A stretch of 64,000 nt of DNA from positions 999 to 64,998 of the forward strand of contig JAPLFI010000202.1 of NCBI GenBank assembly GCA_026390755.1. The letters run 5' to 3'. The notes under the pieces were generated by a model that searched no databases, was not told the DNA's origin, and saw only the letters and a list, made by a program, of their open reading frames with translations. The stretch comes from Ignavibacteriota bacterium. GTDB lineage: Bacteria; Bacteroidota; Ignavibacteria; Tepidaquicellales; Tepidaquicellaceae. Shown here piece by piece: positions 22,900 to 59,172 of the stretch; positions within the stretch are counted from its first letter, which is position 1, and each line of letters begins with the position of its first letter. The translations under genes and the position numbers were made by a program.

Positions 22900-22976
22900 T
22901 GGGGCGAGTAACGGGGCTCGAACCCGTGACATTCAGAGCCACAATCTGACGCTCTGCCAACTGAGCTATACCCGCC
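22900..22976 (-). tRNA. tRNA-His (GUG)
   Basis: Cloverleaf folded by hand. 7-bp acceptor stem, anticodon loop TTGTGGC, TTCGAGC T-loop. Encoded G-1 opposite C73, and encoded CCA. Confidence 0.95.
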
Positions 22977-28708: not shown

Positions 28709-29196
28709 AGAGAAAAGAATATATATCATGGGATGAATATTTCATGGGCATTGCAATGCTTTCGGCGAAGCGGAGTAAAGACCCTAACACACAGGTCGGC
28801 GCCTGTATCGTCAGTCCTGAAAACAAAATTGTCGGTATAGGATATAACGGATTTCCTACCGGCTGTTCGGATGACGACCTGCCGTGGGAAAGAAATTCAG
28901 GGGAAATAAATTTAACAAAATATCCTTATGTAGTGCACGCCGAGGCAAATGCGATACTCAACTCGACAAAAGACCTTCACGGCTCCAGAATCTATGTAGA
29001 TTTATTTCCGTGCAACGAATGCGCGAAGCTTATTATCCAGTCGGGCATTAAGGAAGTAATATATATTTCCGATAAGTATAAAGAAACAGATCCGGTGAAA
29101 GCATCAAGAAAGATGTTTAAATTATCCGGTGTAAAAGAAAGGCAGTTGATTATTAAAAATAAAATCATCAACTTGAACTTCGATTCAGTTCTTTAA
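28705..29196 (+). CDS. dCMP deaminase (ComEB/Dcd-type cytidine/deoxycytidylate deaminase)
   Basis: HAEANAI and PCNECAKLI zinc motifs. TTG start overlapping the upstream stop. Confidence 0.9.
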
Positions 29197-29204
29197 TATG
29201 TTTT

Positions 29205-29370
29205 TTTGGTTCCTTTTTCAACAAGGATTAATAGGGAATCCGGTGTAAGACCGGAACTGTCCACGCAACTGTAAACTGAGAAGATTTGTCTATCTGTGCC
29301 ACTGTTCGTATTAAACGAATGGGAAGGCGGATTAAAAATTGCTCGTAAGTCAGGAGACCTGCCATTAACG
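29205..29370 (+). promoter_or_regulatory. Cobalamin (B12) riboswitch aptamer
   Basis: AATAGGGAATCCGGTG..AGACCGGAACTGTCCACGCAACTGTAA, the B12 box GCCACTG at 29298-29304, GGGAAGGC, and AGTCAGGAGACCTGCC at 29348-29363. It lies directly upstream of a TonB-dependent receptor. Confidence 0.9.
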
Positions 29371-29487
29371 ATATTTCATATTCTTCGCTGGAAAGTGTAT
29401 ATGAACTAATAAAAAGACTCCTTTTGTCTTTGTATTCTTGCATATAATCTTCCGGCGGATAATACAAAGTTTTAAGGAGTTTTTTTA

Positions 29488-31416
29488 TTGAAAAGAATTT
29501 ATATATACATATTGTTTTTTTGTTTCACTTCACCGCTGTTCGCTCAACCGGACAACGACTCCTCTCAGTATAAAACCGAAACTATAAACATTTTCGGCAA
29601 CAGAACAGAATCAAACCTTCTTGAATCTCCGGTCTCAGTCACTTTAATTAACCGCAAATCAATCTCGAATATGAACGGGACAAATCTCGCCGATGTTCTC
29701 CAGAATGCCGGAGGTGTTTTTATTAAATCATACGGAGGAAACTCTTCACTTCAAACTATATCCATGAACGGTCTTGGAGCGGAGCATACCTTGATACTGC
29801 TTAACGGTAACCGAATCAATTCTTATCAGAATTCTCAGTTTGATTTATCGATGATAACAAAGGATAATATTGAATCGGTTGAAATTCTTAATAACGGTTA
29901 CAGCGCGGCGTTCGGCAGTGAAGCTTTCAGCGGTGTACTCAATATAGTAACAAAGGGTTTCGGAGCGGCTGATTTAGGCAGTAAATTTTCGGCTGATATT
30001 AAATCGGAATTCGGCTCATATAATTTCCGAAAATACGGAGCATCCGTCAGCAAAGGATTTGGCAGGATGAACTTCAGAGCATTTTACGAACAGGAAAATT
30101 CGGACGACAATTTCGATTATTATTATGATAACGGTGTATATGAACAAAAAAAACAAAGAAGAAACTCGTCTTTTAGCCAGAAGAATTTCAACGTAATTTT
30201 GAATTACTCACCCGATAAACTCCTTAAATATTCTTTCATATCAGCATATACCGATAATTCAAGAAACCTTCCCGGAATCGAAGCTGGGTCAGAACCCTCT
30301 GCGGCTTATCAGCTCGACAGGAACTGGAACAATTTATTCACTATCGAAAAAGAGTTCTCCGGTAAAAGGAAATTAAATACTGCTTTCGGATTTCAGAACA
30401 ATTACATGAAATACAGCTCAGACCCCGGCGGGAATAGTTTCTATAGAAATATCGTCGTCAGCGGGAAAGCAGTATATGATTTCAGGCTCGGAAATAATAA
30501 AACAGCAGTCGGAACAGAAATAAATTACGCTGTTCTCAACAGCAATAACACCGAAGATTTTAACGGAAGATTTCAGACCGCAGTTTACATGTCGTCTGAA
30601 ATTCCCGTTTCAAAACAACTTTTTGTATTTCCGTCGCTCCGTTATGAAAACACTTCCGATGCCGGCAAACAGGCTTTTCTGGGCAGAATCGGGATAAACT
30701 ACAGGATTATACGGGGGAAAAACATATTTTTAAGGTCAACTTTGGGAAACAGTTACAGGGTGCCGTCATTCAATGAATTGTACTGGAAAACAGGCGGTAA
30801 TAAGAATCTGAAACCCGAGCAATCAGTTAACTTCGATGCCGGACTGATATACAATCTGTTTCTCTTCGCAGATTATACACTGGAAGTAAAATACTTAAAC
30901 ATTAACGCCGTAAATAAAATCATCTGGAAACCCGGGTCTTCGTATTACTGGACTCCCGAAAATATCAGCTCTTCAAAGTCGGAGGTATATTCCGTTGATT
31001 TCAAAACAAAAAAGATTTTCAGTGATAAATTATCTTTATCATTGAATTTCAATTATACATATAATAAATCCGTTAAAAAGAGCGAAGATTTCCCCTCGGA
31101 CCCGTCTGCAGGAAAACAACTCATTTACATTCCCCTTGAGATGTCGAAGATCGGCGTCGAAGCAGAAGTATATGGACTGGGAATTAATATATTTTATATT
31201 TACAACGGAAAACGCTATAAAGATTATGAGAATACCGCATATCTTCCCGCGGTTAATTTAGTAAACGGGAATTTAAGTTATGACTTTATTTTTAAAAGTT
31301 TTGGATTCAATGCTAAATTCGAACTTAACAATATTCTCGGTGAAAATTATCAGGTGATTGCCGGATATCCGATGCCGTTAAGAAATTACAAAATAAGTTT
31401 AACTATTAAATATTAA
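29488..31416 (+). CDS. btuB: TonB-dependent outer-membrane receptor, probable cobalamin transporter
   Basis: Signal peptide, plug-domain sequence, and a beta-barrel ending in the aromatic ..LTIKY. B12 riboswitch leader. TTG start preceded by AAGGAG. Confidence 0.85.
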   Translation: MKRIYIYILFFCFTSPLFAQPDNDSSQYKTETINIFGNRTESNLLESPVSVTLINRKSISNMNGTNLADVLQNAGGVFIKSYGGNSSLQTISMNGLGAEHTLILLNGNRINSYQNSQFDLSMITKDNIESVEILNNGYSAAFGSEAFSGVLNIVTKGFGAADLGSKFSADIKSEFGSYNFRKYGASVSKGFGRMNFRAFYEQENSDDNFDYYYDNGVYEQKKQRRNSSFSQKNFNVILNYSPDKLLKYSFISAYTDNSRNLPGIEAGSEPSAAYQLDRNWNNLFTIEKEFSGKRKLNTAFGFQNNYMKYSSDPGGNSFYRNIVVSGKAVYDFRLGNNKTAVGTEINYAVLNSNNTEDFNGRFQTAVYMSSEIPVSKQLFVFPSLRYENTSDAGKQAFLGRIGINYRIIRGKNIFLRSTLGNSYRVPSFNELYWKTGGNKNLKPEQSVNFDAGLIYNLFLFADYTLEVKYLNINAVNKIIWKPGSSYYWTPENISSSKSEVYSVDFKTKKIFSDKLSLSLNFNYTYNKSVKKSEDFPSDPSAGKQLIYIPLEMSKIGVEAEVYGLGINIFYIYNGKRYKDYENTAYLPAVNLVNGNLSYDFIFKSFGFNAKFELNNILGENYQVIAGYPMPLRNYKISLTIKY

Positions 31417-31422
31417 AAAAAT

Positions 31423-32082
31423 ATGGATACAGAAACAAATAATTTACAGAATTCCGGCGGAAATAAGCTTAAAAAGAAAATGCTCGAAACAGTTGAAAAA
31501 TATAAATTACTCACGGATGAAGAAAAAAATTGTCTTCATATATACTACGGATACGGCAAAGGTAAAACCACAAGCACTATCGGTCTGATAATCAGGGCGC
31601 TCGGCGCCGGTAAAAAAGTTGCCCTGGTGCAGTTTGATAAAGGGTATGACGGAGAAAACGAACATTATTCCGAAAGGCTGATTCTGCGGAAACTCGCCGG
31701 TACAGGTTATAATATTGAGATATTCCCGACCGGATGCGAAAGAATGAATTCAGACGGAACTTTCAGGTTTAAAAATATGAAAGAAGATTTTTCCGAAGCG
31801 GAAAGGGGACTTTCGATATCGCGGAGTCTGATTACTGAGGGGACTCAGGATTTACTCGTTCTCGATGAATCTATTGCGGCTGTTGCTTATAATCTTTTGT
31901 CGAAAGCGGCAGTTGAAGAACTGATTGACCTTTACAAGAAAAACAGACGATTTGAACTTGTAATGACCGGTCATAAGCTGTGGAACGGACTTGAGGAAAA
32001 AGCCGACCTTATAACGGAAATGCGTAAAGTAAAACATTATTTCGACAAGGGTATTCCGGCCCGTGCCGGAATTGAATTTTAA
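31423..32082 (+). CDS. cobO: Cob(I)yrinic acid a,c-diamide / cob(I)alamin adenosyltransferase
   Basis: P-loop YGYGKGKTTSTIG, LVQFDKG, LVLDE. The true start may be the internal Met (MLETVEKY). Confidence 0.85.
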   Translation: MDTETNNLQNSGGNKLKKKMLETVEKYKLLTDEEKNCLHIYYGYGKGKTTSTIGLIIRALGAGKKVALVQFDKGYDGENEHYSERLILRKLAGTGYNIEIFPTGCERMNSDGTFRFKNMKEDFSEAERGLSISRSLITEGTQDLLVLDESIAAVAYNLLSKAAVEELIDLYKKNRRFELVMTGHKLWNGLEEKADLITEMRKVKHYFDKGIPARAGIEF

Positions 32083-32097
32083 TATATATACTGCCGA

Positions 32098-33126
32098 ATG
32101 AAAAAGATTATATTCTTATTACTCTCTGCTTTGTTCTTCTGTTCATGCAATACGGGTGAAATTATCACAAATCAAAATCCGGTTGTCGGCACATCGGGTG
32201 TGTATCTTCTGTCCGAAGGCTCCATGGCACCCGGCTCTGCGAAGTTATCTTATTATAATTCAACAAATGATTCACTGTATCAGAATATTTTCAGACCGGG
32301 TAATTTCGGACTATTTCCCGACGGAATGATATTTTACGGCGCGGACATTTATGTAACAGAGCAGGGCAATTATAATTCCACGGGCAGGTTGTATAAACTT
32401 GATACTTCCGGGAATGTACTTAATTCTGTTCTTGTCGGGATCAATCCATATTCTTTATGCGTCTCGAACGGAAAATTGTATATTACAAACGGACCTGCAG
32501 GAAATGTTTCCGTGCTGAATGCGTCAACGCTCGGTTTTATCAAAAATATTTCCGCAGGCGTTTATCCTCAGGAAATTATTGCATTGAACGGACGTGTATT
32601 TGTTTGCAACACAAGTATTTACGGCGGAAATCAGGATTCCACTATTTCTGTTATAGATGCATTAAAAGATTCCGTAATTAAGGTAATTGCATTAGGAAAA
32701 GATCCTTTTTCAATCGCCGTTTCAAAAGATAATAATATTATTGCCGGATGTCTAGGAGCGGACGGAAAACTTTATGAAATTGATCCCGCCGCTTTTGTTA
32801 TTCTCGATACGCTGTCGAATCAATGGGGTTTTGGCAAAGATATCAGCGTTGACATGCAGACCAATGACATATATTTCATTTCAAACTCTAACCACATAGT
32901 AAAATCAAATTTCGCATCAAGAACGTCAGTAATTGCGGTAAACAATTCAGAGCCTGCAGGCAGTTTCTTCTATGGCTATTTATTTGACAGTGTTAACCGG
33001 CGGCACTATATTGCAGATGCGAGGAATTTTTCCGTTTCAGGGCTGTTGAAAATATATGATATTAATTCGGCTTTAATAAATTCTTTTTCAACCGGTATTG
33101 CGCCGCGAAGACTGATGTTAAGATGA
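32098..33126 (+). CDS. Beta-propeller surface lipoprotein (YncE/DUF5074-like) in the B12 locus
   Basis: Lipobox FFCSCN. Repeated roughly 40-aa blades. GVYLLSEGS motif near the N-terminus. Confidence 0.5.
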   Translation: MKKIIFLLLSALFFCSCNTGEIITNQNPVVGTSGVYLLSEGSMAPGSAKLSYYNSTNDSLYQNIFRPGNFGLFPDGMIFYGADIYVTEQGNYNSTGRLYKLDTSGNVLNSVLVGINPYSLCVSNGKLYITNGPAGNVSVLNASTLGFIKNISAGVYPQEIIALNGRVFVCNTSIYGGNQDSTISVIDALKDSVIKVIALGKDPFSIAVSKDNNIIAGCLGADGKLYEIDPAAFVILDTLSNQWGFGKDISVDMQTNDIYFISNSNHIVKSNFASRTSVIAVNNSEPAGSFFYGYLFDSVNRRHYIADARNFSVSGLLKIYDINSALINSFSTGIAPRRLMLR

Positions 33127-33221
33127 GGCTTCCGGAAAATCAATATTGATTCGATTTCGGCAAAAAGTAACGGAAGTATTATAATATTTTTTTAATATTA
33201 CAATATTTATATCTTTACGGT

Positions 33222-34172
33222 ATGAATGACGACAGATTAATAAATAGTGAATACGGCATTATCAGCCGTGAATATCCCGTTAATACAATATTATCAGGCG
33301 CCGAGTCTGACGACTTCAGGATTTATATAAGCAATCTCGCTTTTTCTAAAATGGACGCTTATTTATCTTCGGATGTTGCGCGGGAACTCGGTGGAGTGCT
33401 AACCGGGAATTTATGCCGTAATGATGCCGGTAAGGATTTTATTATGATAGATGATATTATCATCGCAAAGTATGCGGAATCCGACTTAACCAAACTTACA
33501 TTCACACATAAAACATGGGAGTATATTAATAACTCACTTTCTTCCTCCGACTCCGCTAAGTCAATAATCGGATGGTTTCATTCGCATCCCGGACATAAAG
33601 TATTTATGTCCGGTTATGATGTGTTTATACAGGAAAATTTTTTCAACCTGGATCACATGGTGGCTTACGTTTTCGACCCGGTAAATCTCGAGAGGGGATT
33701 CTTTTTCCGGAAAAATAAAGAACTGATTAAAACCGAAGGTTATTATATATATGATAAGGGTTCGGCTGACTCTTACGGCGAAGTATCGGACGGCAGTGTG
33801 AAGGATAAAAGAGGTAATACGAATTCAAAGTTATTATATATTTTGCTTATATTTCTGATTATCAATTTTGCTTTATCCTTTTTTCTCATGTACAGAATCA
33901 GCGAAATGAATTCAAAATATATTGAGATTGCAATGCTTGAAAAGAAAATAAGCGATTTAATAACGGACGTCGGTAATATGAAAATTCAGATTGCAAAAAC
34001 AAACGAGGAAAATCCGAGACTATATACGGTCAGAGAGGGAGAGAATTTAGAAAGCATCGCGCTCAGGTTTTATAATGACAGGACGGGTGTAAATATGCTT
34101 GTTAAACAAAATAAACTCCGTGATGAATTTGATATTGAAGCCGGACGGATTTTAGAAATCCCGGACAGATAA
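33222..34172 (+). CDS. JAMM/MPN+ metallopeptidase - TM helix - coiled coil - LysM protein
   Basis: Glu55 (ARELGG) plus H120-S-H122-x7-S130-x2-D133 (HSHPGHKVFMSGYD) makes a complete JAMM motif. TM helix LLYILLIFLIINFALSFFLMY (about 204-224). C-terminal LysM YTVREGENLESIALRFY...GRILEIP. Confidence 0.8.
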   Translation: MNDDRLINSEYGIISREYPVNTILSGAESDDFRIYISNLAFSKMDAYLSSDVARELGGVLTGNLCRNDAGKDFIMIDDIIIAKYAESDLTKLTFTHKTWEYINNSLSSSDSAKSIIGWFHSHPGHKVFMSGYDVFIQENFFNLDHMVAYVFDPVNLERGFFFRKNKELIKTEGYYIYDKGSADSYGEVSDGSVKDKRGNTNSKLLYILLIFLIINFALSFFLMYRISEMNSKYIEIAMLEKKISDLITDVGNMKIQIAKTNEENPRLYTVREGENLESIALRFYNDRTGVNMLVKQNKLRDEFDIEAGRILEIPDR

Positions 34173-34177
34173 AACTT

Positions 34178-34717
34178 ATGACACCGCGCGAACGAAGACT
34201 GAAATCCGATTTCGAGAAAATTACAGCTGAATTCTCAGATCATCCGTATATTAAAGTTGAATTTGACACGAACGGTTTTATTCCTGAAAAATATCAGATT
34301 ACTTATACAGGTATAAACGGTATCAGATTAATCCCTTCAAAACCCGGAGAAGAGAAAATAGTCGAAATTATAGACGAACATGTTATTGAGATATATCTGC
34401 ACATTGATTATCCGAGAATGAAACCGCAGTGTTACTGTAAAACGGAAATATTTCATCCGAATTTCAGAATGGCGCATCCACATGATATCTGCATAGGGGA
34501 TTACTGGGCATCGGGTGAAACACTTTATGACCTCATATATCAGATTGGCGAAATGATACAATATCAGAATTACAATATTAAAAATCCTCTGAACGGAGTG
34601 GCGGCAAAATGGGCAAGGGAGCATTCCGATACACTGCCTGTGGGAAAAATTAACCTGTGGCTCGGTGAAATAAAACTGGATTTAAGTGAAAAAAATAATT
34701 TAGAATTAAACTTATAA
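34178..34717 (+). CDS. UBC/E2-like (ubiquitin-conjugating enzyme fold) protein
   Basis: IEIYLHIDYPRMKPQCYCKTEIFHPNFRMAHPHDICIGDYW matches the E2 signature (F/Y)P..PP..F.T.I.HPN...G.IC. HPN is at 34454-34462 and Cys105 at 34490-34492. The N-terminal RLKSDFEKI helix is also E2-like. It starts 5 bp after the JAMM gene. Confidence 0.7.
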   Translation: MTPRERRLKSDFEKITAEFSDHPYIKVEFDTNGFIPEKYQITYTGINGIRLIPSKPGEEKIVEIIDEHVIEIYLHIDYPRMKPQCYCKTEIFHPNFRMAHPHDICIGDYWASGETLYDLIYQIGEMIQYQNYNIKNPLNGVAAKWAREHSDTLPVGKINLWLGEIKLDLSEKNNLELNL

Positions 34718-34721
34718 TAAA

Positions 34722-35234
34722 ATGATTATTCCATATAATGGTATTACGCCGGTTATACACGAAAGCGTTTTTATATGCGAAGGAGCGCAGATAATCGGAG
34801 ACGTTGTACTTGAAAAAGACGTCAGCGTATGGTTCAACGCAGTAGTCCGCGGAGACGTCAACTATGTAAGAGTTGGGGAGAGGACCAATATTCAGGACGG
34901 TTCGATACTTCACAATACATATCAGAAATATCCTCTCACAATCGGCAAAGATGTTACAATCGGACACGGAGTCATACTTCACGGCTGTAATGTAAGGGAC
35001 AGGGTGCTTATAGGCATGGGCGCTGTACTTCTCGATGATTGCGATGTCGGCTCCGGTTCGTTTATTGCAGCCGGCGCTCTCGTCAGAGAGCATTTCAAAG
35101 TCCCCGAAGGCGTACTCGTTGCAGGTGTGCCCGGAAAAATTATACGCGATTTGAAACCGGAGGAAATTGCAAAAATTGATTACGGAGTGAAAAACTATCT
35201 GATGTACGTGGAAAACTACAGAAAAGGCAAATAA
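34722..35234 (+). CDS. Gamma-class carbonic anhydrase-like / left-handed beta-helix (hexapeptide) protein
   Basis: 170 aa. PaaY/YrdA-like, with hexapeptide repeats and His ligands (SILHNT.., IGHGVILHG). Confidence 0.85.
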   Translation: MIIPYNGITPVIHESVFICEGAQIIGDVVLEKDVSVWFNAVVRGDVNYVRVGERTNIQDGSILHNTYQKYPLTIGKDVTIGHGVILHGCNVRDRVLIGMGAVLLDDCDVGSGSFIAAGALVREHFKVPEGVLVAGVPGKIIRDLKPEEIAKIDYGVKNYLMYVENYRKGK

Positions 35235-36495: not shown

Positions 36496-37434
36496 ATGAA
36501 AAACCGCGCTGTTGCAAATACCGGGGATTTCTTAAAAGAAATGCTTTCTTCTTTCTGGCATTATTTAAAAAAACTTTATGATAAATTTGATAAAGACCAG
36601 ATATGGATACTTTCTTCCGGTGTATCTTTCAGCATCATTCTTGTAATTATTCCGTTGGTTTTGATTCTCTTTACGGTACTGGGGATTTATCTGGATAAAA
36701 CTGACGCCGTGCTGAAGATAAACGAGTATATCAACCAGCTATTCCCTCTGAACATCAGTTACAAAGAAAAGTTTTTGGCAAATATCATGGAGAAAGTTGA
36801 CGAAATTTCAAAACACACTTTTCTCACAGGCGCTCTGGGGATTGCCGGTGTACTCTGGACTATGAGCAGTTTATTCAGCTATATGCGCGATGCTATGAAC
36901 CGTATTTACAATGTTGACCAATCCCTGAATTTCTTTAAAGGCAAACTCAGGGATTTTATGCTGTTGATTATAATAGTTGTGCTTTTTATTGCATCTACAC
37001 TCGTAACTTCTTTCTATCACTTCAGCGTCGCTTATCTTAAAGACTTGCCTGATATTTTCAATAATATAGTTCTGATTACCTACATTCTTCCGATTTCACT
37101 GTCATTAGTCATTACTTTCGGACTATTTTACTTTCTTTATGCGCTCGTGCCTCATTACAGAATTCCGCAGAAAGCATTGTTACTGTCAACTTTAATCGCA
37201 TCTGTTTTGTTTGAAATAATGAAGTTCTTGTTCTCTTACTACGTACTGAACATATCAAACTATAAATATATATACGGAGCGTACGCGGCTGTTGTAATAA
37301 CTTTGCTCTGGATTTATGTTATTTCGCTGATATTCTGTATCGGAGCAGCCATTGGACAGATATACGTTGAAAAGAACAAGCTCAAAATAATATTAAATAA
37401 CGATAAGAATAATGGAACAGAGAAGACTGTCTAA
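36496..37434 (+). CDS. YihY/BrkB-family membrane protein
   Basis: 312 aa with about 6 TM helices. Family-like N-terminus and layout. Confidence 0.75.
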   Translation: MKNRAVANTGDFLKEMLSSFWHYLKKLYDKFDKDQIWILSSGVSFSIILVIIPLVLILFTVLGIYLDKTDAVLKINEYINQLFPLNISYKEKFLANIMEKVDEISKHTFLTGALGIAGVLWTMSSLFSYMRDAMNRIYNVDQSLNFFKGKLRDFMLLIIIVVLFIASTLVTSFYHFSVAYLKDLPDIFNNIVLITYILPISLSLVITFGLFYFLYALVPHYRIPQKALLLSTLIASVLFEIMKFLFSYYVLNISNYKYIYGAYAAVVITLLWIYVISLIFCIGAAIGQIYVEKNKLKIILNNDKNNGTEKTV

Positions 37435-38659
37435 AACCATAGAGAAATTTCTTACAGATGCCCCCGGTATTGAAACTGTCGAGGAGTTATTGTCTTATGT
37501 TTTGAAGCAGATAATTGATACGGGTGACATCGGAATAACAGGAGGGAGAATATGGAAACTGAAAGATAATAAAACGACATATATACTTATAGAACAGACG
37601 GGTGATGTTTCGATAATTGATGAGAAATATGAACTCAAAGTCAGGGATTTTTCCGTTCTAAAGGAAATCGGCAAACGAAGAACAATTACCAGTACAGAGA
37701 CCGACAGATATCTGAAGAAAAAAGGAATATATCATTACTCGGCGACGGGCGTGGGTCACAGGTATAAAATAAAAAAAGAAAAAGAAATATATTTCCTTTA
37801 CCAGTATCTTATTGCCCTTAACGGCAACGAACTCGATGATGAATTCATTTACACTTTAAATATCATCGGTACAACCATTAATTCGATATTAAGAACGAAA
37901 CGGATTGAGTTCAAAGCCAAAGAAAACATTGCAGAGCTCGAAAAGGCGAGCGAAATACAAAACAGCATTCTCCCCGAGCATTCGATGAAATTCGGCAATT
38001 ATGAGCTTTACGGGATATCAATTCCCGATAAAATTGTAGGCGGAGATTTTTTTGATTATATAAAAACAGCAGATGACTATAAATTATGCGTGGCGATAGG
38101 GGATGCCGCTTCAAAAGGCATATCAGCCGCAGCTCAGTCATTATATGTATCCGGCGCATTGAAAATGGGCGTTGATTATGATGTTAATATGCCGTCTCTT
38201 ATACGCAAAATCGGCAACCTGGTAAACGATACATTTCCCGACGAGCGCTTTGTGACTTTATTCCTCTGCGAATTATATACTGACCAGAAAGGGCTGTTTG
38301 TTTATGTCAATGCAGGACATAATTTGCCATTTTATTTCGACAGAAGTGAAAATACTCTCGAAAGTCTGCTTACTACGGGTTCGGTATTGGGTCCTTCACC
38401 CGACCAAAAATACTATACGGACAGTTTTTACATAGAAGAAGGGGATATTGTTGTGTTATATACGGACGGAATTGTCGAAGCGATGGACGCTGATTTCGAA
38501 TTATACGGGGAAGAAAGGCTTCGTAAAGTGATTATGGATAACAGTGACCAATCTCCGGAAATACTATCACAGAAAATCATTCAGGATGTTCAGGTTTACT
38601 CTGCCAACGGTAAATATTCGGACGACAAAACACTGGTAATAATCAAACGGATTTCTTAG
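37412..38659 (+). CDS. PP2C/SpoIIE-family serine phosphatase with N-terminal sensor-like domain
   Basis: GGDFFDY, GDAASKGISAA, NAGHN, LYTDGIVEA. Overlaps the upstream gene by 23 nt. Confidence 0.8.
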   Translation: MEQRRLSKTIEKFLTDAPGIETVEELLSYVLKQIIDTGDIGITGGRIWKLKDNKTTYILIEQTGDVSIIDEKYELKVRDFSVLKEIGKRRTITSTETDRYLKKKGIYHYSATGVGHRYKIKKEKEIYFLYQYLIALNGNELDDEFIYTLNIIGTTINSILRTKRIEFKAKENIAELEKASEIQNSILPEHSMKFGNYELYGISIPDKIVGGDFFDYIKTADDYKLCVAIGDAASKGISAAAQSLYVSGALKMGVDYDVNMPSLIRKIGNLVNDTFPDERFVTLFLCELYTDQKGLFVYVNAGHNLPFYFDRSENTLESLLTTGSVLGPSPDQKYYTDSFYIEEGDIVVLYTDGIVEAMDADFELYGEERLRKVIMDNSDQSPEILSQKIIQDVQVYSANGKYSDDKTLVIIKRIS

Positions 38660-40794: not shown

Positions 40795-42831
40795 ATGCCG
40801 GAAAAAGATAATAAGAATAAAAGTAACGAAGAATTCAACTGGAACAAAATATTAAAAATTGTACTCGGATGGAGCGTGATTTTAATAGGTTTTTTTCTGA
40901 TAATGATATATACGAAGAGTTCGGACGGAAAAAACCTTGAAATAACATTTGATCAGTATCAGAAATTCCTTACGGATAAAAAGATAGAATCGGCTGTCAT
41001 AAAGAAAGCGGATAATAACTACGAATTTCTCGGGAAACTGCGCGCGCCGGAAACGCTTCCTATAGGCGGCAGACAGGTGAACGTTGACCGTTTTACACTT
41101 TATCTTCCTTATACGAATACGGACGACGCTTTAATAAAATCCTGGTCGGAAAACATACCCTCTTACACGTTTGAAAAGGATGACGGCGGATGGATAGGAC
41201 CGATACTCGGAGCTTTACCCTGGATTCTGATAATAGTATTCTGGATTTTTATTATGAGGCGTATGCAGAACGGCGGAGGTGGAGCTAAGGGAATATTTTC
41301 TTTCGGCAAATCCAAAGCCAAACTGATGAATGCATCGCAGATGAAAGTAACCTTTGCCGATGTAGCAGGTGCCGATGAAGCCAAGCAGGAATTATCGGAA
41401 ATAATAGATTTCCTGAAGAGCCCGGCAAAATTTCAAAGGCTCGGCGGAAAAATTCCAAGAGGTGTTTTACTGCTCGGTCCTCCGGGAACGGGTAAAACTC
41501 TGCTTGCAAGAGCAGTTGCCGGTGAATCAGGTGTTCCTTTCTTTTCTATAAGCGGCGCTGATTTTGTTGAAATGTTCGTCGGTGTGGGTGCATCGCGTGT
41601 CAGAGACCTTTTTGAACAGGGAAAGAAAAATGCCCCCTGCATAATTTTCATTGATGAAATTGACGCAGTAGGCAGGCATCGCGGCGCGGGACTCGGCGGA
41701 GGACATGATGAGCGTGAACAAACTCTTAATCAACTGCTCATAGAAATGGACGGTTTTGAGCAAAACAGCGGAGTAATTATTATTGCCGCAACTAACAGAC
41801 CCGATATACTCGACCCTGCTCTGCTGAGACCCGGACGGTTTGACCGGCAGGTAGTAGTTGACAGACCTGATGTCAGAGGGAGAGAAGGGATACTTAAAGT
41901 TCATACAAGAAATATTCCGCTTTCAAATGATATTAAAATTGATATACTTGCGAAAGGTACACCCGGTTTTTCCGGTGCCGACCTCGCAAACCTCGTAAAC
42001 GAAGCGGCTTTACTTGCCGCCCGGCGCAATTCCGACAATGTTACAATGAGAGATATGGAGAGCGCTAAAGATAAGGTTATGATGGGAACGGAAAGAAAGA
42101 GTATGATAATATCCGAGAGGGAAAAACGCCTCACTGCATACCATGAAACGGGACATGTACTTGTAGCCAAGCATACACCTGAAGCGGACCCGGTGCATAA
42201 GGTAACTATAATACCGCGCGGACGGGCGCTCGGAGTGACGACATATCTGCCGATTGATGAAAAACATACTTACTCAAAAGAGTATCTTGAAGCCATGATT
42301 ACATACGCAATGGGCGGCAGAGCCGCCGAAAAATTAGTATTCAATGAATATACTACCGGCGCGAGTAATGATATACTGCGCGCTACTTCGCTTGCGCGGA
42401 AAATGGTATGTGAATACGGTATGAGCGAAAAACTTGGACCCATAACGTACGGTAATAAACAGGAAGAAGTATTCCTCGGTAAAGAACTGCATGAGCATAA
42501 GAATTTCAGTGAAACAACTCAGATAATTATTGACGACGAAATAAAGAAAATTGTGCAATCGTGTATGGACAGGTCTGTCAGAATCCTCACTGAAAATATG
42601 GACGAACTTCACAGAGTATCACTCGTACTTCTCGAAAGGGAAATTCTGGACTCGGATGAAATTGACAAGGTAATGAGGGGTGAAACCCTTCCTCCTGTCA
42701 TAAAAGAAGAAGTGTTTGAGAGTGTACAGGAAAACGGAAAACCCGAAGGAAAACCCGAAGGAAAACCCGAAAGTAAATTAAAAGATGAAAAGCCGATAAC
42801 CAAAAAAAACCTGAGACGGTTTGAACTCTAA
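40795..42831 (+). CDS. ftsH: ATP-dependent zinc metalloprotease FtsH
   Basis: [21 protein letters not shown], and HETGH zinc site. The C-terminal tail contains [12 protein letters not shown]. Confidence 0.97.
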
Positions 42832-59098: not shown

Positions 59099-59172
59099 GG
59101 GCAATTGGCACAGTCGGTTAGCGCGCTTCCTTCACACGGAAGAGGTCACTGGTTCGAATCCGGTATTGCCCA
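59099..59172 (+). tRNA. tRNA-Val (CAC)
   Basis: Cloverleaf folded by hand. Acceptor GGGCAAT/ATTGCCC, anticodon loop TTCACAC, TTCGAAT T-loop, discriminator A. CCA is not encoded. Confidence 0.9.

Follow-up and report, generated by a model that had tools for sequence, protein, structure and literature searches.

A syntenic E2 and JAB-LysM gene pair of Ignavibacteria, a probable reduced derivative of a bacterial ubiquitin-like conjugation operon

Described conjugation operons and the Ignavibacteria locus

Protein conjugation has been demonstrated experimentally for three bacterial operon families, namely, type II CBASS, Bil and Bub; the latter two invariably include genes for an activating enzyme (E1) and a ubiquitin-like protein (Ubl), joined by a DUF6527 protease in the case of Bub, and are sparse and in part associated with defence (PMC11601603). 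Here, we describe a gene pair in a 64,000-nucleotide stretch of an Ignavibacteriota genome (assembly GCA_026390755.1, contig JAPLFI010000202.1, positions 999 to 64,998; hereafter, the window), which encodes a JAB-family peptidase with a transmembrane (TM) helix and a LysM domain, followed by a conjugating enzyme (E2) of the UBC fold and, directly downstream, by a gamma-carbonic-anhydrase-like left-handed beta-helix (LbH) protein. As in the Bil (types I and II) and Bub (types I and II) operons, with the exception of type II Bub, an E2 is encoded together with a JAB/JAMM peptidase, but the window locus lacks an E1, a Ubl and a DUF6527 protein, and its E2 matches no PADLOC model. The likeness to Cap2/Cap3 of type II CBASS is confined to weak similarity of the JAB protein (PADLOC JAB, E = 4.9e-8; NCBIfam cap2_3, E = 2e-4, far below the cut-off), whereas the E2, a classical UBC enzyme, stands alone instead of being fused to an E1 as in Cap2, and no effector is present. 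The first-pass annotation of this stretch, which had set the pair apart from Bil, Bub and CBASS, was thus right, given that an operon-encoded E1 and Ubl as well as an E2-E1 fusion are absent.

Its further claim that the pair matches no known system did not stand, however: the nearest relatives outside the Ignavibacteria clade, with E2s 44-51% identical to that of the window, reside in full operons of a bacterial E1/E2/RING/JAB/Ubl class that Burroughs, Iyer and Aravind reportedly predicted by computation in 2011 (Mol Biosyst). The E3s of this class are marked by the Pfam family Prok-RING_1, which we take to derive from the same work. Passages of PMC3417536, PMC7159879 and PMC11601603 cite the 2011 operon class, and in the literature searched we found neither experimental work on the YukD/RING/JAB-LysM family nor a mention of the Ignavibacteria E2/JAB pair. 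The full operons and the window locus have in common the JAB signature GW.H.HPG...FLS.YD.FI.ENFF, the TM plus LysM architecture, a classical HPN/Cys E2 and an Rpn11-like JAB domain. By contrast, the window and 46 related loci contain no E1, no Ubl ending in ...EITAG, no RING E3s, no FHA-TM protein and no trypsin-like protease; furthermore, the Ignavibacteria-type E2 is never fused to an FHA domain, carries an insertion between HPN and the catalytic Cys and is always accompanied by LbH. Whereas the 2011-type operon is sporadic, the Ignavibacteria-type locus is syntenic and belongs to the core genome. Because the searches for an operon-encoded E1, Ubl and E3 failed even though both proteins are clear orthologues of those in the full operons, the locus can be regarded as a reduced, domesticated variant of a known operon class, and the pair is very probably a reduced derivative of the full system. 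What is new is the reduced three-gene arrangement in Ignavibacteria, the parent operon class having been predicted already in 2011.

Two other groups of systems invite comparison. The eukaryote-like operon of Caldiarchaeum subterraneum and Asgard archaea, comprising ubiquitin, E1, E2, a small RING protein and an Rpn11 homologue, has been reconstituted, and the Caldiarchaeum Rpn11 homologue both matures pro-ubiquitin and deconjugates (PMC5654768). It resembles the window locus in its classical UBC E2 and its Rpn11-type JAMM protease, which is the best structural match of the window JAB, but includes its own ubiquitin, E1 and RING genes; moreover, its JAMM protein is soluble, with neither a TM helix nor LysM, and the identity is ~20-27%. 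In the archaeal SAMP/UbaA/HvJAMM1 and the Thermus TtuB/TtuC systems, the genes for the E1, the Ubl and the JAMM protease are dispersed, and the E1 also functions in sulfur metabolism. These systems provide the precedent and model for an E1 acting in trans, although they include no E2, which in the window is the conserved partner of the JAMM protease.

The E2 and JAB-LysM proteins

The JAB, E2 and LbH open reading frames (ORFs) lie on the same strand and nearly abut, with gaps of 5 bp and 4 bp, respectively (Table 1), in agreement with the coordinates and spacing of the first-pass annotation and with the gamma-carbonic-anhydrase-like right flank that it had described. The E2 is recognized by a single Pfam model, UQ_con (27.8 bits; cut-off 27), whereas no match at E<=1 was obtained with the Prok-E2 family models (Prok-E2_A to Prok-E2_E) or with the PADLOC and NCBIfam models. 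With an AlphaFold2 (AF2) model of the protein (pLDDT 87.8, pTM 0.83) as the Foldseek query, all top 50 PDB matches were E2 enzymes (E ~5e-7; TM-score (target) 0.59-0.70), the best-matching structures including Ube2N, Rad6, Ube2S and Ubc9, and a profile search of the PDB sequences aligned the catalytic Cys of Ubc13 with C105. In an alignment of 50 E2 orthologues, H93, P94, N95, C105, W110, P137 and W145 are invariant. Thus, the UBC fold as well as the conservation of HPN and Cys105, on which the initial assignment hinged, were borne out. HPN and C105 had been correctly placed, as were the other residues numbered in both proteins, but the spacing originally given, HPNF-x9-C, is wrong: eight residues separate F96 from C105, so that the motif reads HPN-x9-C.

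This spacing exceeds that of canonical UBC enzymes by one or two residues, owing to a clade-specific insertion in the HPN-Cys loop (R97, A99 and P101 invariant) that is present only in the three-gene clade and has no counterpart in the full-system E2s. The insertion adjoins the predicted active site and could alter the substrate or partner specificity. Also invariant only in the three-gene clade are E18, N139, K144, E148 and R161. Many other positions are common to the reduced and full clades, including R4, R6, R7 and D11 of helix alpha-1, H68, a YPxxPP-like element (Y78-P79-R80...P83), HPN, C105, W110, G124-M126, P137, A142-A143, W145 and P154. In eukaryotic E2s, alpha-1 is the docking surface for the E1 UFD domain and for E3s.

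The upstream gene encodes a protein with significant matches to the Pfam families JAB (32.8 bits; cut-off 22.5) and LysM (30.6 bits; cut-off 20.9), with the Prok-JAB score (16.7 bits) staying under the cut-off of 25; PADLOC and NCBIfam yielded weak JAB-domain and LysM matches alone. The zinc-binding and catalytic motif is complete (E55...H120-S-H122-x7-S130-x2-D133), and E55, H120, S121, H122, P123, G124, H125, S130 and D133 are invariant across 49 aligned orthologues. Profile searches of the PDB retrieved Rpn11, CSN5 and AMSH (E 6e-11 to 1e-7; Rpn11 ~6e-11). In the AF2 model (pLDDT 81.8), an MPN domain (residues 23-177) is followed by a disordered linker, one long helix (202-260), the first ~20 residues of which form the hydrophobic TM segment also detected by a hydrophobic-window scan, and a LysM domain (266-313) with the beta-alpha-alpha-beta fold, for which PDB LysM matches were obtained as well. 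The best Foldseek match of the model is 6fnn, the ubiquitin complex of the Caldiarchaeum Rpn11 homologue (TM-score (target) 0.79), followed by CSN5 and Rpn11. Pfam, the AF2 model and Foldseek accordingly agree with the JAB and LysM domains, the complete JAMM motif and the membrane architecture proposed at first pass. LysM is present in most of the JAB orthologues listed with precomputed Pfam annotation, whereas the length of the stalk between the TM helix and LysM differs among the orthologues. Because a Lys/Arg-rich stretch precedes the TM helix and a peptidoglycan-binding LysM domain follows it, the JAB domain is likely cytoplasmic and LysM periplasmic; by the positive-inside rule, the N-terminus is predicted to be inside and the C-terminus outside.

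A separate observation concerns the protein termini. The E2 tail (residues ~161-179; GE-I-D-I-x-L ... I-D-I-E-L-K) alternates between hydrophobic and charged residues, and so does the N-terminus of JAB orthologues (M-K-I-E-I-K-E-N). Besides these two termini, the FHA, RING and trypsin proteins encoded in full operons also contain short alternating hydrophobic/acidic strings (IEIELK, MKIEIKEN and DFEIxxxEL are examples of the type), with D-F-E-I-x-L-like strings in several full-operon proteins, including those of loci L007 and L008; the motif is weak in the JAB N-terminus of the window itself (MNDDRLINSEY). These strings may represent a shared docking strand. A Ubl-like C-terminal Gly on the E2 was considered and rejected, the tail ending in hydrophobic and charged residues.

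Synteny, absent partners and the related full operons

Database searches identified 172 relatives of the E2 at E<=1e-3. The 120 of these that were listed are 48-69% identical to it, save one near-identical copy (99%), and, where a source name is given, are labelled Ignavibacteria, Ignavibacteriae, Bacteroidota, Chlorobiota metagenome-assembled genomes (MAGs), 'bacterium' and soil metagenome; relatives of the JAB-LysM protein are distributed in the same way. In six MAG and metagenome loci, the JAB, E2 and LbH genes are embedded in housekeeping synteny, with argS, an epimerase, an aminotransferase, a TonB-dependent receptor, BtuR and a DUF5074-like gene upstream, and genes for a cold-shock-domain protein, YbeY, TopA, TldD/PmbA and XerC downstream. 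A metagenome scan, in which genes were labelled with hidden Markov models (HMMs) that we built, added 79 loci. E2 followed by LbH was found in 49 loci (46 non-redundant; 429.5 kb in total; 20 of at least 10 kb), and the order in the 46 non-redundant loci, followed for up to 10 kb on each side, is always JAB-LysM, E2, LbH. All 38 loci with at least 400 bp of upstream sequence carry JAB and/or LysM upstream of E2, so that the adjacency seen in the window is kept among the relatives. Except where a contig end interrupts the locus, both ORFs are intact throughout, and the overall identity among orthologues is 52-65% for E2 and 36-45% for JAB, with the catalytic and many structural residues invariant. 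By these comparisons, the cassette is fixed in the core genome of Ignavibacteria and vertically inherited. As a side observation, 20 of 32 Ignavibacteria-type loci encode, between the cold-shock gene and ybeY, a conserved protein of ~142 aa with no Pfam match, located ~1.3 kb downstream of E2 (for example, at 1933-2403 in L116, and in L132) and not found at that position in the window.

LbH directly follows E2 in all 46 non-redundant Ignavibacteria-type loci and is found in none of the 113 full-system loci; the E2-to-LbH gaps in the window and related loci are 4, 3, -4 and 17 bp. This adjacency suggests a functional link between LbH and the pair. However, given that the loci form a single monophyletic lineage with ~15 kb of conserved synteny, it may reflect inherited gene order rather than coupling.

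The partners expected of a conjugation system were searched for in several ways. Searches (tblastn) with the cognate E1, Ubl, RING, FHA and trypsin proteins found nothing at E<=1 in the 64-kb window, and unfiltered HMM scans of all six frames returned only noise (best E 0.07-0.96); hence, the initial statement that no E1 or Ubl is encoded nearby holds across the window. Likewise, E1, YukD-like Ubl, RING, FHA and trypsin models had no match in the 49 related loci. The local absence of a CD-NTase that had been reported at first pass is also in line with our data, none being present among the Pfam-annotated neighbours (~15 kb downstream and ~10 kb upstream), although no explicit CD-NTase search was made. 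The possibility that a conserved small ORF nearby encodes an overlooked Ubl was rejected as well: when all ORFs of 60 aa or more in the 46 loci were clustered, the gene for the cold-shock protein was the sole small one to be conserved.

The full systems emerged from a search of 1.84 billion cluster representatives with an E2 profile, which yielded 1802 relatives, 211 of them at E<=1e-30, many fused to FHA, double zinc ribbon (DZR), TPR, trypsin-like or membrane domains. The full-system E2 relatives score 150-250 bits with this profile; in tblastn comparisons, full-system E2s show 44-49% identity to that of the window, and the JAB-LysM proteins encoded alongside them are matched to its JAB with E 1e-30 to 1e-42. 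Labelling of the loci with HMMs led to the same orthology assignment. The L007 operon, for instance, encodes a 61-aa Ubl ending in ...LRLQPEITAG-RW, a ThiF-type E1, an E2-FHA fusion, a trypsin, Prok-RING_1, FHA and JAB-LysM. Other arrangements are E1, JAB-LysM, RING/RDD, E2, JAB, FHA and RING (L008), E1, E2, YukD, JAB-LysM and RING/DZR/RDD (L009 and L010) and, in one of the loci with the closest outgroup E2s, E1, JAB, YukD, E2, FHA, E2 and trypsin (L013). When one genome per species was scanned with the E1 as anchor, at least 553 matches were obtained, mostly from Clostridia (Oscillospiraceae, Lachnospiraceae and Acutalibacteraceae; gut and rumen Clostridia included) and Armatimonadota, with fewer from Sumerlaeota, Planctomycetia, Synergistales and others. 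Among the best 80 loci, 69 carry E1, E2 and JAB together, the canonical order is RING, YukD, E1, E2(-FHA), trypsin, JAB, RING, JAB-LysM, and a YukD gene lies immediately 5' of E1 in all 80. Nearly all full-system components, including the RING, FHA, trypsin and JAB-LysM proteins, are predicted to be membrane-anchored. The Ubl ends in ...DGDVLRLQPEITAG, as the exact C-terminus or followed by no more than 10 residues, in 69 of 83 ORFs with a YukD-like domain; judged by its pattern, this almost invariant tail (...LRLQPEITAG, in some cases followed by a propeptide) is the hallmark of a peptidase-matured tag.

Some full-system loci depart from this scheme. In a Clostridial subset (L025, L030, L031, L034, L042, L046, L061, L078, L080 and L083), the YukD-like ORF upstream of E1 is 196-262 aa long and has a hydrophobic, TM-like end instead of ...ITAG. 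These long products could be either a Ubl that is anchored in the membrane and would have to be cleaved internally or a non-conjugatable paralogue; because ORFs were called at their greatest length, the start sites are uncertain. In P0243, L162, L165 and L170, the N-terminus of E2 is fused to a YukD-like Ubl domain, and a passage of PMC7159879 mentions the 'Ubl combined with E2' architecture seen in these fusions. Several records bear odd titles: L034 (CAVGWF010000065.1) is an 'Escherichia coli isolate ... cleanbin', and L015 and L020 carry Chitinophagales and Methylocystaceae MAG titles within a single BioProject. Such titles are probably binning or labelling artefacts, so that the taxon labels of the full system need care.

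To place the two types of locus, a rough neighbour-joining (NJ) tree of 152 E2 domains was built. The three-gene clade is monophyletic (38 tips) and sister to a full-system clade of 87 tips, with further full-system lineages branching deeper. In the metagenome set, E2s more than 51% identical to that of the window always belong to three-gene loci, whereas those at or below 51% always belong to full-type loci devoid of LbH. By parsimony on this tree, the state linked to E1, Ubl and RING is ancestral, and the Ignavibacteria state would be derived through the loss or relocation of the E1, Ubl and RING genes and the gain of the LbH neighbour.

The left flank of the pair in the window comprises a cobalamin riboswitch and genes for a TonB-dependent receptor and BtuR/CobO (Table 1), as expected of the B12-uptake operon named in the first-pass annotation. 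A terminator scan of the locus found none, and because the 95-bp gap before the JAB gene is free of a recognizable terminator, read-through from the riboswitch-controlled B12 operon into that gene is possible. A sigma-70-like match in this gap may tentatively be taken as the pair's own promoter, but is not significant by itself, as 13 such sites were seen against 9.2 expected by chance. After the LbH gene, the window contains a gene for a protein with a Por_Secre_tail domain (sorted by the type IX secretion system). Further downstream genes encode BrkB/YihY-like, SpoIIE-type phosphatase, TPR, FtsH, YchF and FeoB proteins.

Table 1. Coordinates of features in the 64-kb window
Feature	Position	Strand	Details
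tRNA gene	22903-22975	-	
Cobalamin riboswitch	29190-29380		116 bits
TonB-dependent receptor gene	29488-31416		
BtuR/CobO gene	31423-32082		
DUF5074-like beta-propeller lipoprotein gene	32098-33126		
Sigma-70-like promoter match, TCGGCA-17-TATAAT	33157-33185	+	10/12; in the 95-bp gap upstream of the JAB gene
JAB(MPN+)-TM-coiled coil-LysM gene	33222-34172	+	316 aa
Alternating-string site, JAB N-terminus	33222-33250		
Rpn11-like MPN+ (JAMM) domain	33288-33752	+	Residues ~23-177
JAMM catalytic codons	E55 33384-33386; H120 33579-33581; H122 33585-33587; S130 33609-33611; D133 33618-33620		
Single TM helix	33831-33893	+	Residues ~204-224, LLYILLIFLIINFALSFFLMY; from sequence, hydrophobic-window scan and model
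Coiled-coil-like helical stalk, TM to LysM	33894-34001	+	Residues ~225-260
C-terminal LysM peptidoglycan-binding domain	34017-34163	+	Residues ~266-314; predicted periplasmic
Classical UBC-fold E2 gene	34178-34717	+	179 aa
E2 HPN codons	34454-34462	+	
HPN-Cys loop insertion	34466-34483		E2 residues 97-102
E2 catalytic Cys105 codon	34490-34492	+	
Alternating-string site, E2 tail	34658-34714		
Gamma-carbonic-anhydrase-like LbH (hexapeptide) gene	34722-35234	+	170 aa; Pfam Hexapep 64 bits
BrkB/YihY-like membrane protein gene	36496-37434		
SpoIIE-type PP2C phosphatase gene	37412-38659		N-terminal sensor-like region; 23 nt overlap with the BrkB/YihY-like gene
FtsH gene	40795-42831		A TPR protein gene also lies 3' of the phosphatase gene
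tRNA gene	59099-59172	+	

Proposed function and alternative explanations

The pair retains all residues for thioester (HPN and Cys105) and Zn-dependent isopeptidase (E, HxH, S and D) chemistry, and both enzymes are likely to be catalytically active. We tentatively read the locus as a fixed, reduced conjugation/deconjugation pair that is fed by an E1 and a Ubl from elsewhere, a reading that we prefer while holding it open to considerable doubt. In this scheme, the Ubl would be bound through a thioester to Cys105 of the soluble E2 and then attached to targets on the cytoplasmic side of the inner membrane. The JAB domain, facing the cytoplasm, held at the membrane through one TM helix and tied to peptidoglycan by the periplasmic LysM domain, would mature and/or remove the tag, so that tagging would be spatially linked to the cell wall. 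The supply of E1 and Ubl in trans, itself plausible but somewhat doubtful, would rely on a YukD/E1 pair relocated to an unlinked locus or, alternatively, on housekeeping MoeB/ThiF with a MoaD/ThiS-type protein, as in the archaeal SAMP/UbaA/JAMM system.

Several considerations weigh against the supply of E1 and Ubl from elsewhere and the history behind it. None of the best 80 of at least 553 E1 genome matches is labelled Ignavibacteria, nor is any of the 120 best protein clusters, out of at least 7963, matched by the E1 of the closest full-system lineage, and none of these 120 sits on a long Ignavibacteria contig; confined to these best matches, both scans are non-exhaustive. A dispersed arrangement would also be unusual for the family, because all other lineages link E1 and Ubl tightly to E2 and JAB. 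The NJ tree carries no support values and is rooted with two human E2 sequences that were entered by hand. Furthermore, the activity of every family member is a prediction, and the clade-specific insertion, the clade's own invariant residues and the constant LbH neighbour would fit a changed function equally well.

Such a change of function, in which the E2 and JAB-LysM proteins are kept together with LbH for some other chemistry or as a signalling scaffold that requires no E1, appears unlikely. Cys105 might carry a non-Ubl acyl or peptidyl group that JAB hydrolyses, or sensing of the peptidoglycan state by LysM might control a cytoplasmic complex of E2, JAB and LbH. The presence of LbH in 46/46 loci versus 0/113 full-system loci, the lack of E1, Ubl, RING, FHA and trypsin in all 46, the overlapping or nearly abutting E2 and LbH genes (gaps of -4 to 17 bp), the loop insertion and surface residues invariant only in the three-gene clade, and the lack of an Ignavibacteria E1 among the E1 matches listed all point in this direction. 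However, the canonical HPN/Cys and the full JAMM motif, as Ubl chemistry requires, are invariant, the alpha-1 docking residues of the E1-linked relatives are kept, and the LbH adjacency, seen in one monophyletic lineage, may be inherited gene order; to our knowledge, moreover, there is no E1-independent enzyme of the UBC fold. Rather improbable, too, is the persistence of an E2 and an isopeptidase over the history of the class with no dedicated E1, Ubl or E3, as an unknown envelope-coupled modification or signalling device involving LbH. A pair without a dedicated E1 would imply either a UBC enzyme loaded by an agent other than a ThiF-type E1 or a substrate outside the beta-grasp fold.

The known systems and the fate of the lost partners suggest two further explanations. 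An anti-phage defence module related to Bil, Bub or type II CBASS, possibly degenerate, is brought to mind by the weak PADLOC and cap2_3 matches of the JAB protein, along with one to the JAB part of an E1-E2 model (E = 3e-5), and by the fact that the bacterial E2 plus JAB operons known so far are mostly defence systems. We nevertheless reject it as highly improbable on the grounds of context, distribution and an E2 that matches neither PADLOC and NCBIfam nor Prok-E2 models: the locus lacks E1, Ubl, an effector and, by the Pfam annotation of its neighbours rather than an explicit search, a CD-NTase; it lies in conserved housekeeping synteny instead of a defence island; its monophyletic clade in one lineage fits vertical inheritance; and the JAB domain is of the Rpn11 type (PF01398), scoring under the Prok-JAB cut-off. 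Least probable by far is a non-functional, decaying remnant of a full operon. The locus does lack most of the partner genes found in full systems, and relatives outside the clade do sit in full E1/Ubl operons, one of the outcomes that the first-pass annotation had taken to signal a decayed fragment. The Ignavibacteria pair is not such a fragment, however: the pair is monophyletic and lies in conserved housekeeping synteny, and intact ORFs, the same gene order in at least 46 distinct loci and invariant catalytic and many structural residues at overall identities of 52-65% (E2) and 36-45% (JAB) effectively refute decay.

In the bacterial Ubl-conjugation systems studied to date (CBASS Cap2/3, Bil and Bub), the genes for E1, E2, Ubl and peptidase lie together, and the systems are sporadic and mostly defence-linked. 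By contrast, the E2 and the deconjugase-type peptidase of Ignavibacteria behave as housekeeping genes across the class, with a predicted tie to the cell wall through LysM and the usual partners absent in cis. If E1 and Ubl are indeed supplied in trans, bacteria would offer an example of a ubiquitin-like pathway that is encoded in the core genome at dispersed loci and possibly serves the control of membrane or envelope proteins, whereas if no E1 and Ubl exist, the pair would be the first case of a catalytic UBC fold that works independently of an E1. The parent family, with at least 553 species representatives from gut Clostridia, Armatimonadota and other groups and uncharacterized in the literature searched, appears to be an attractive target for biochemistry.

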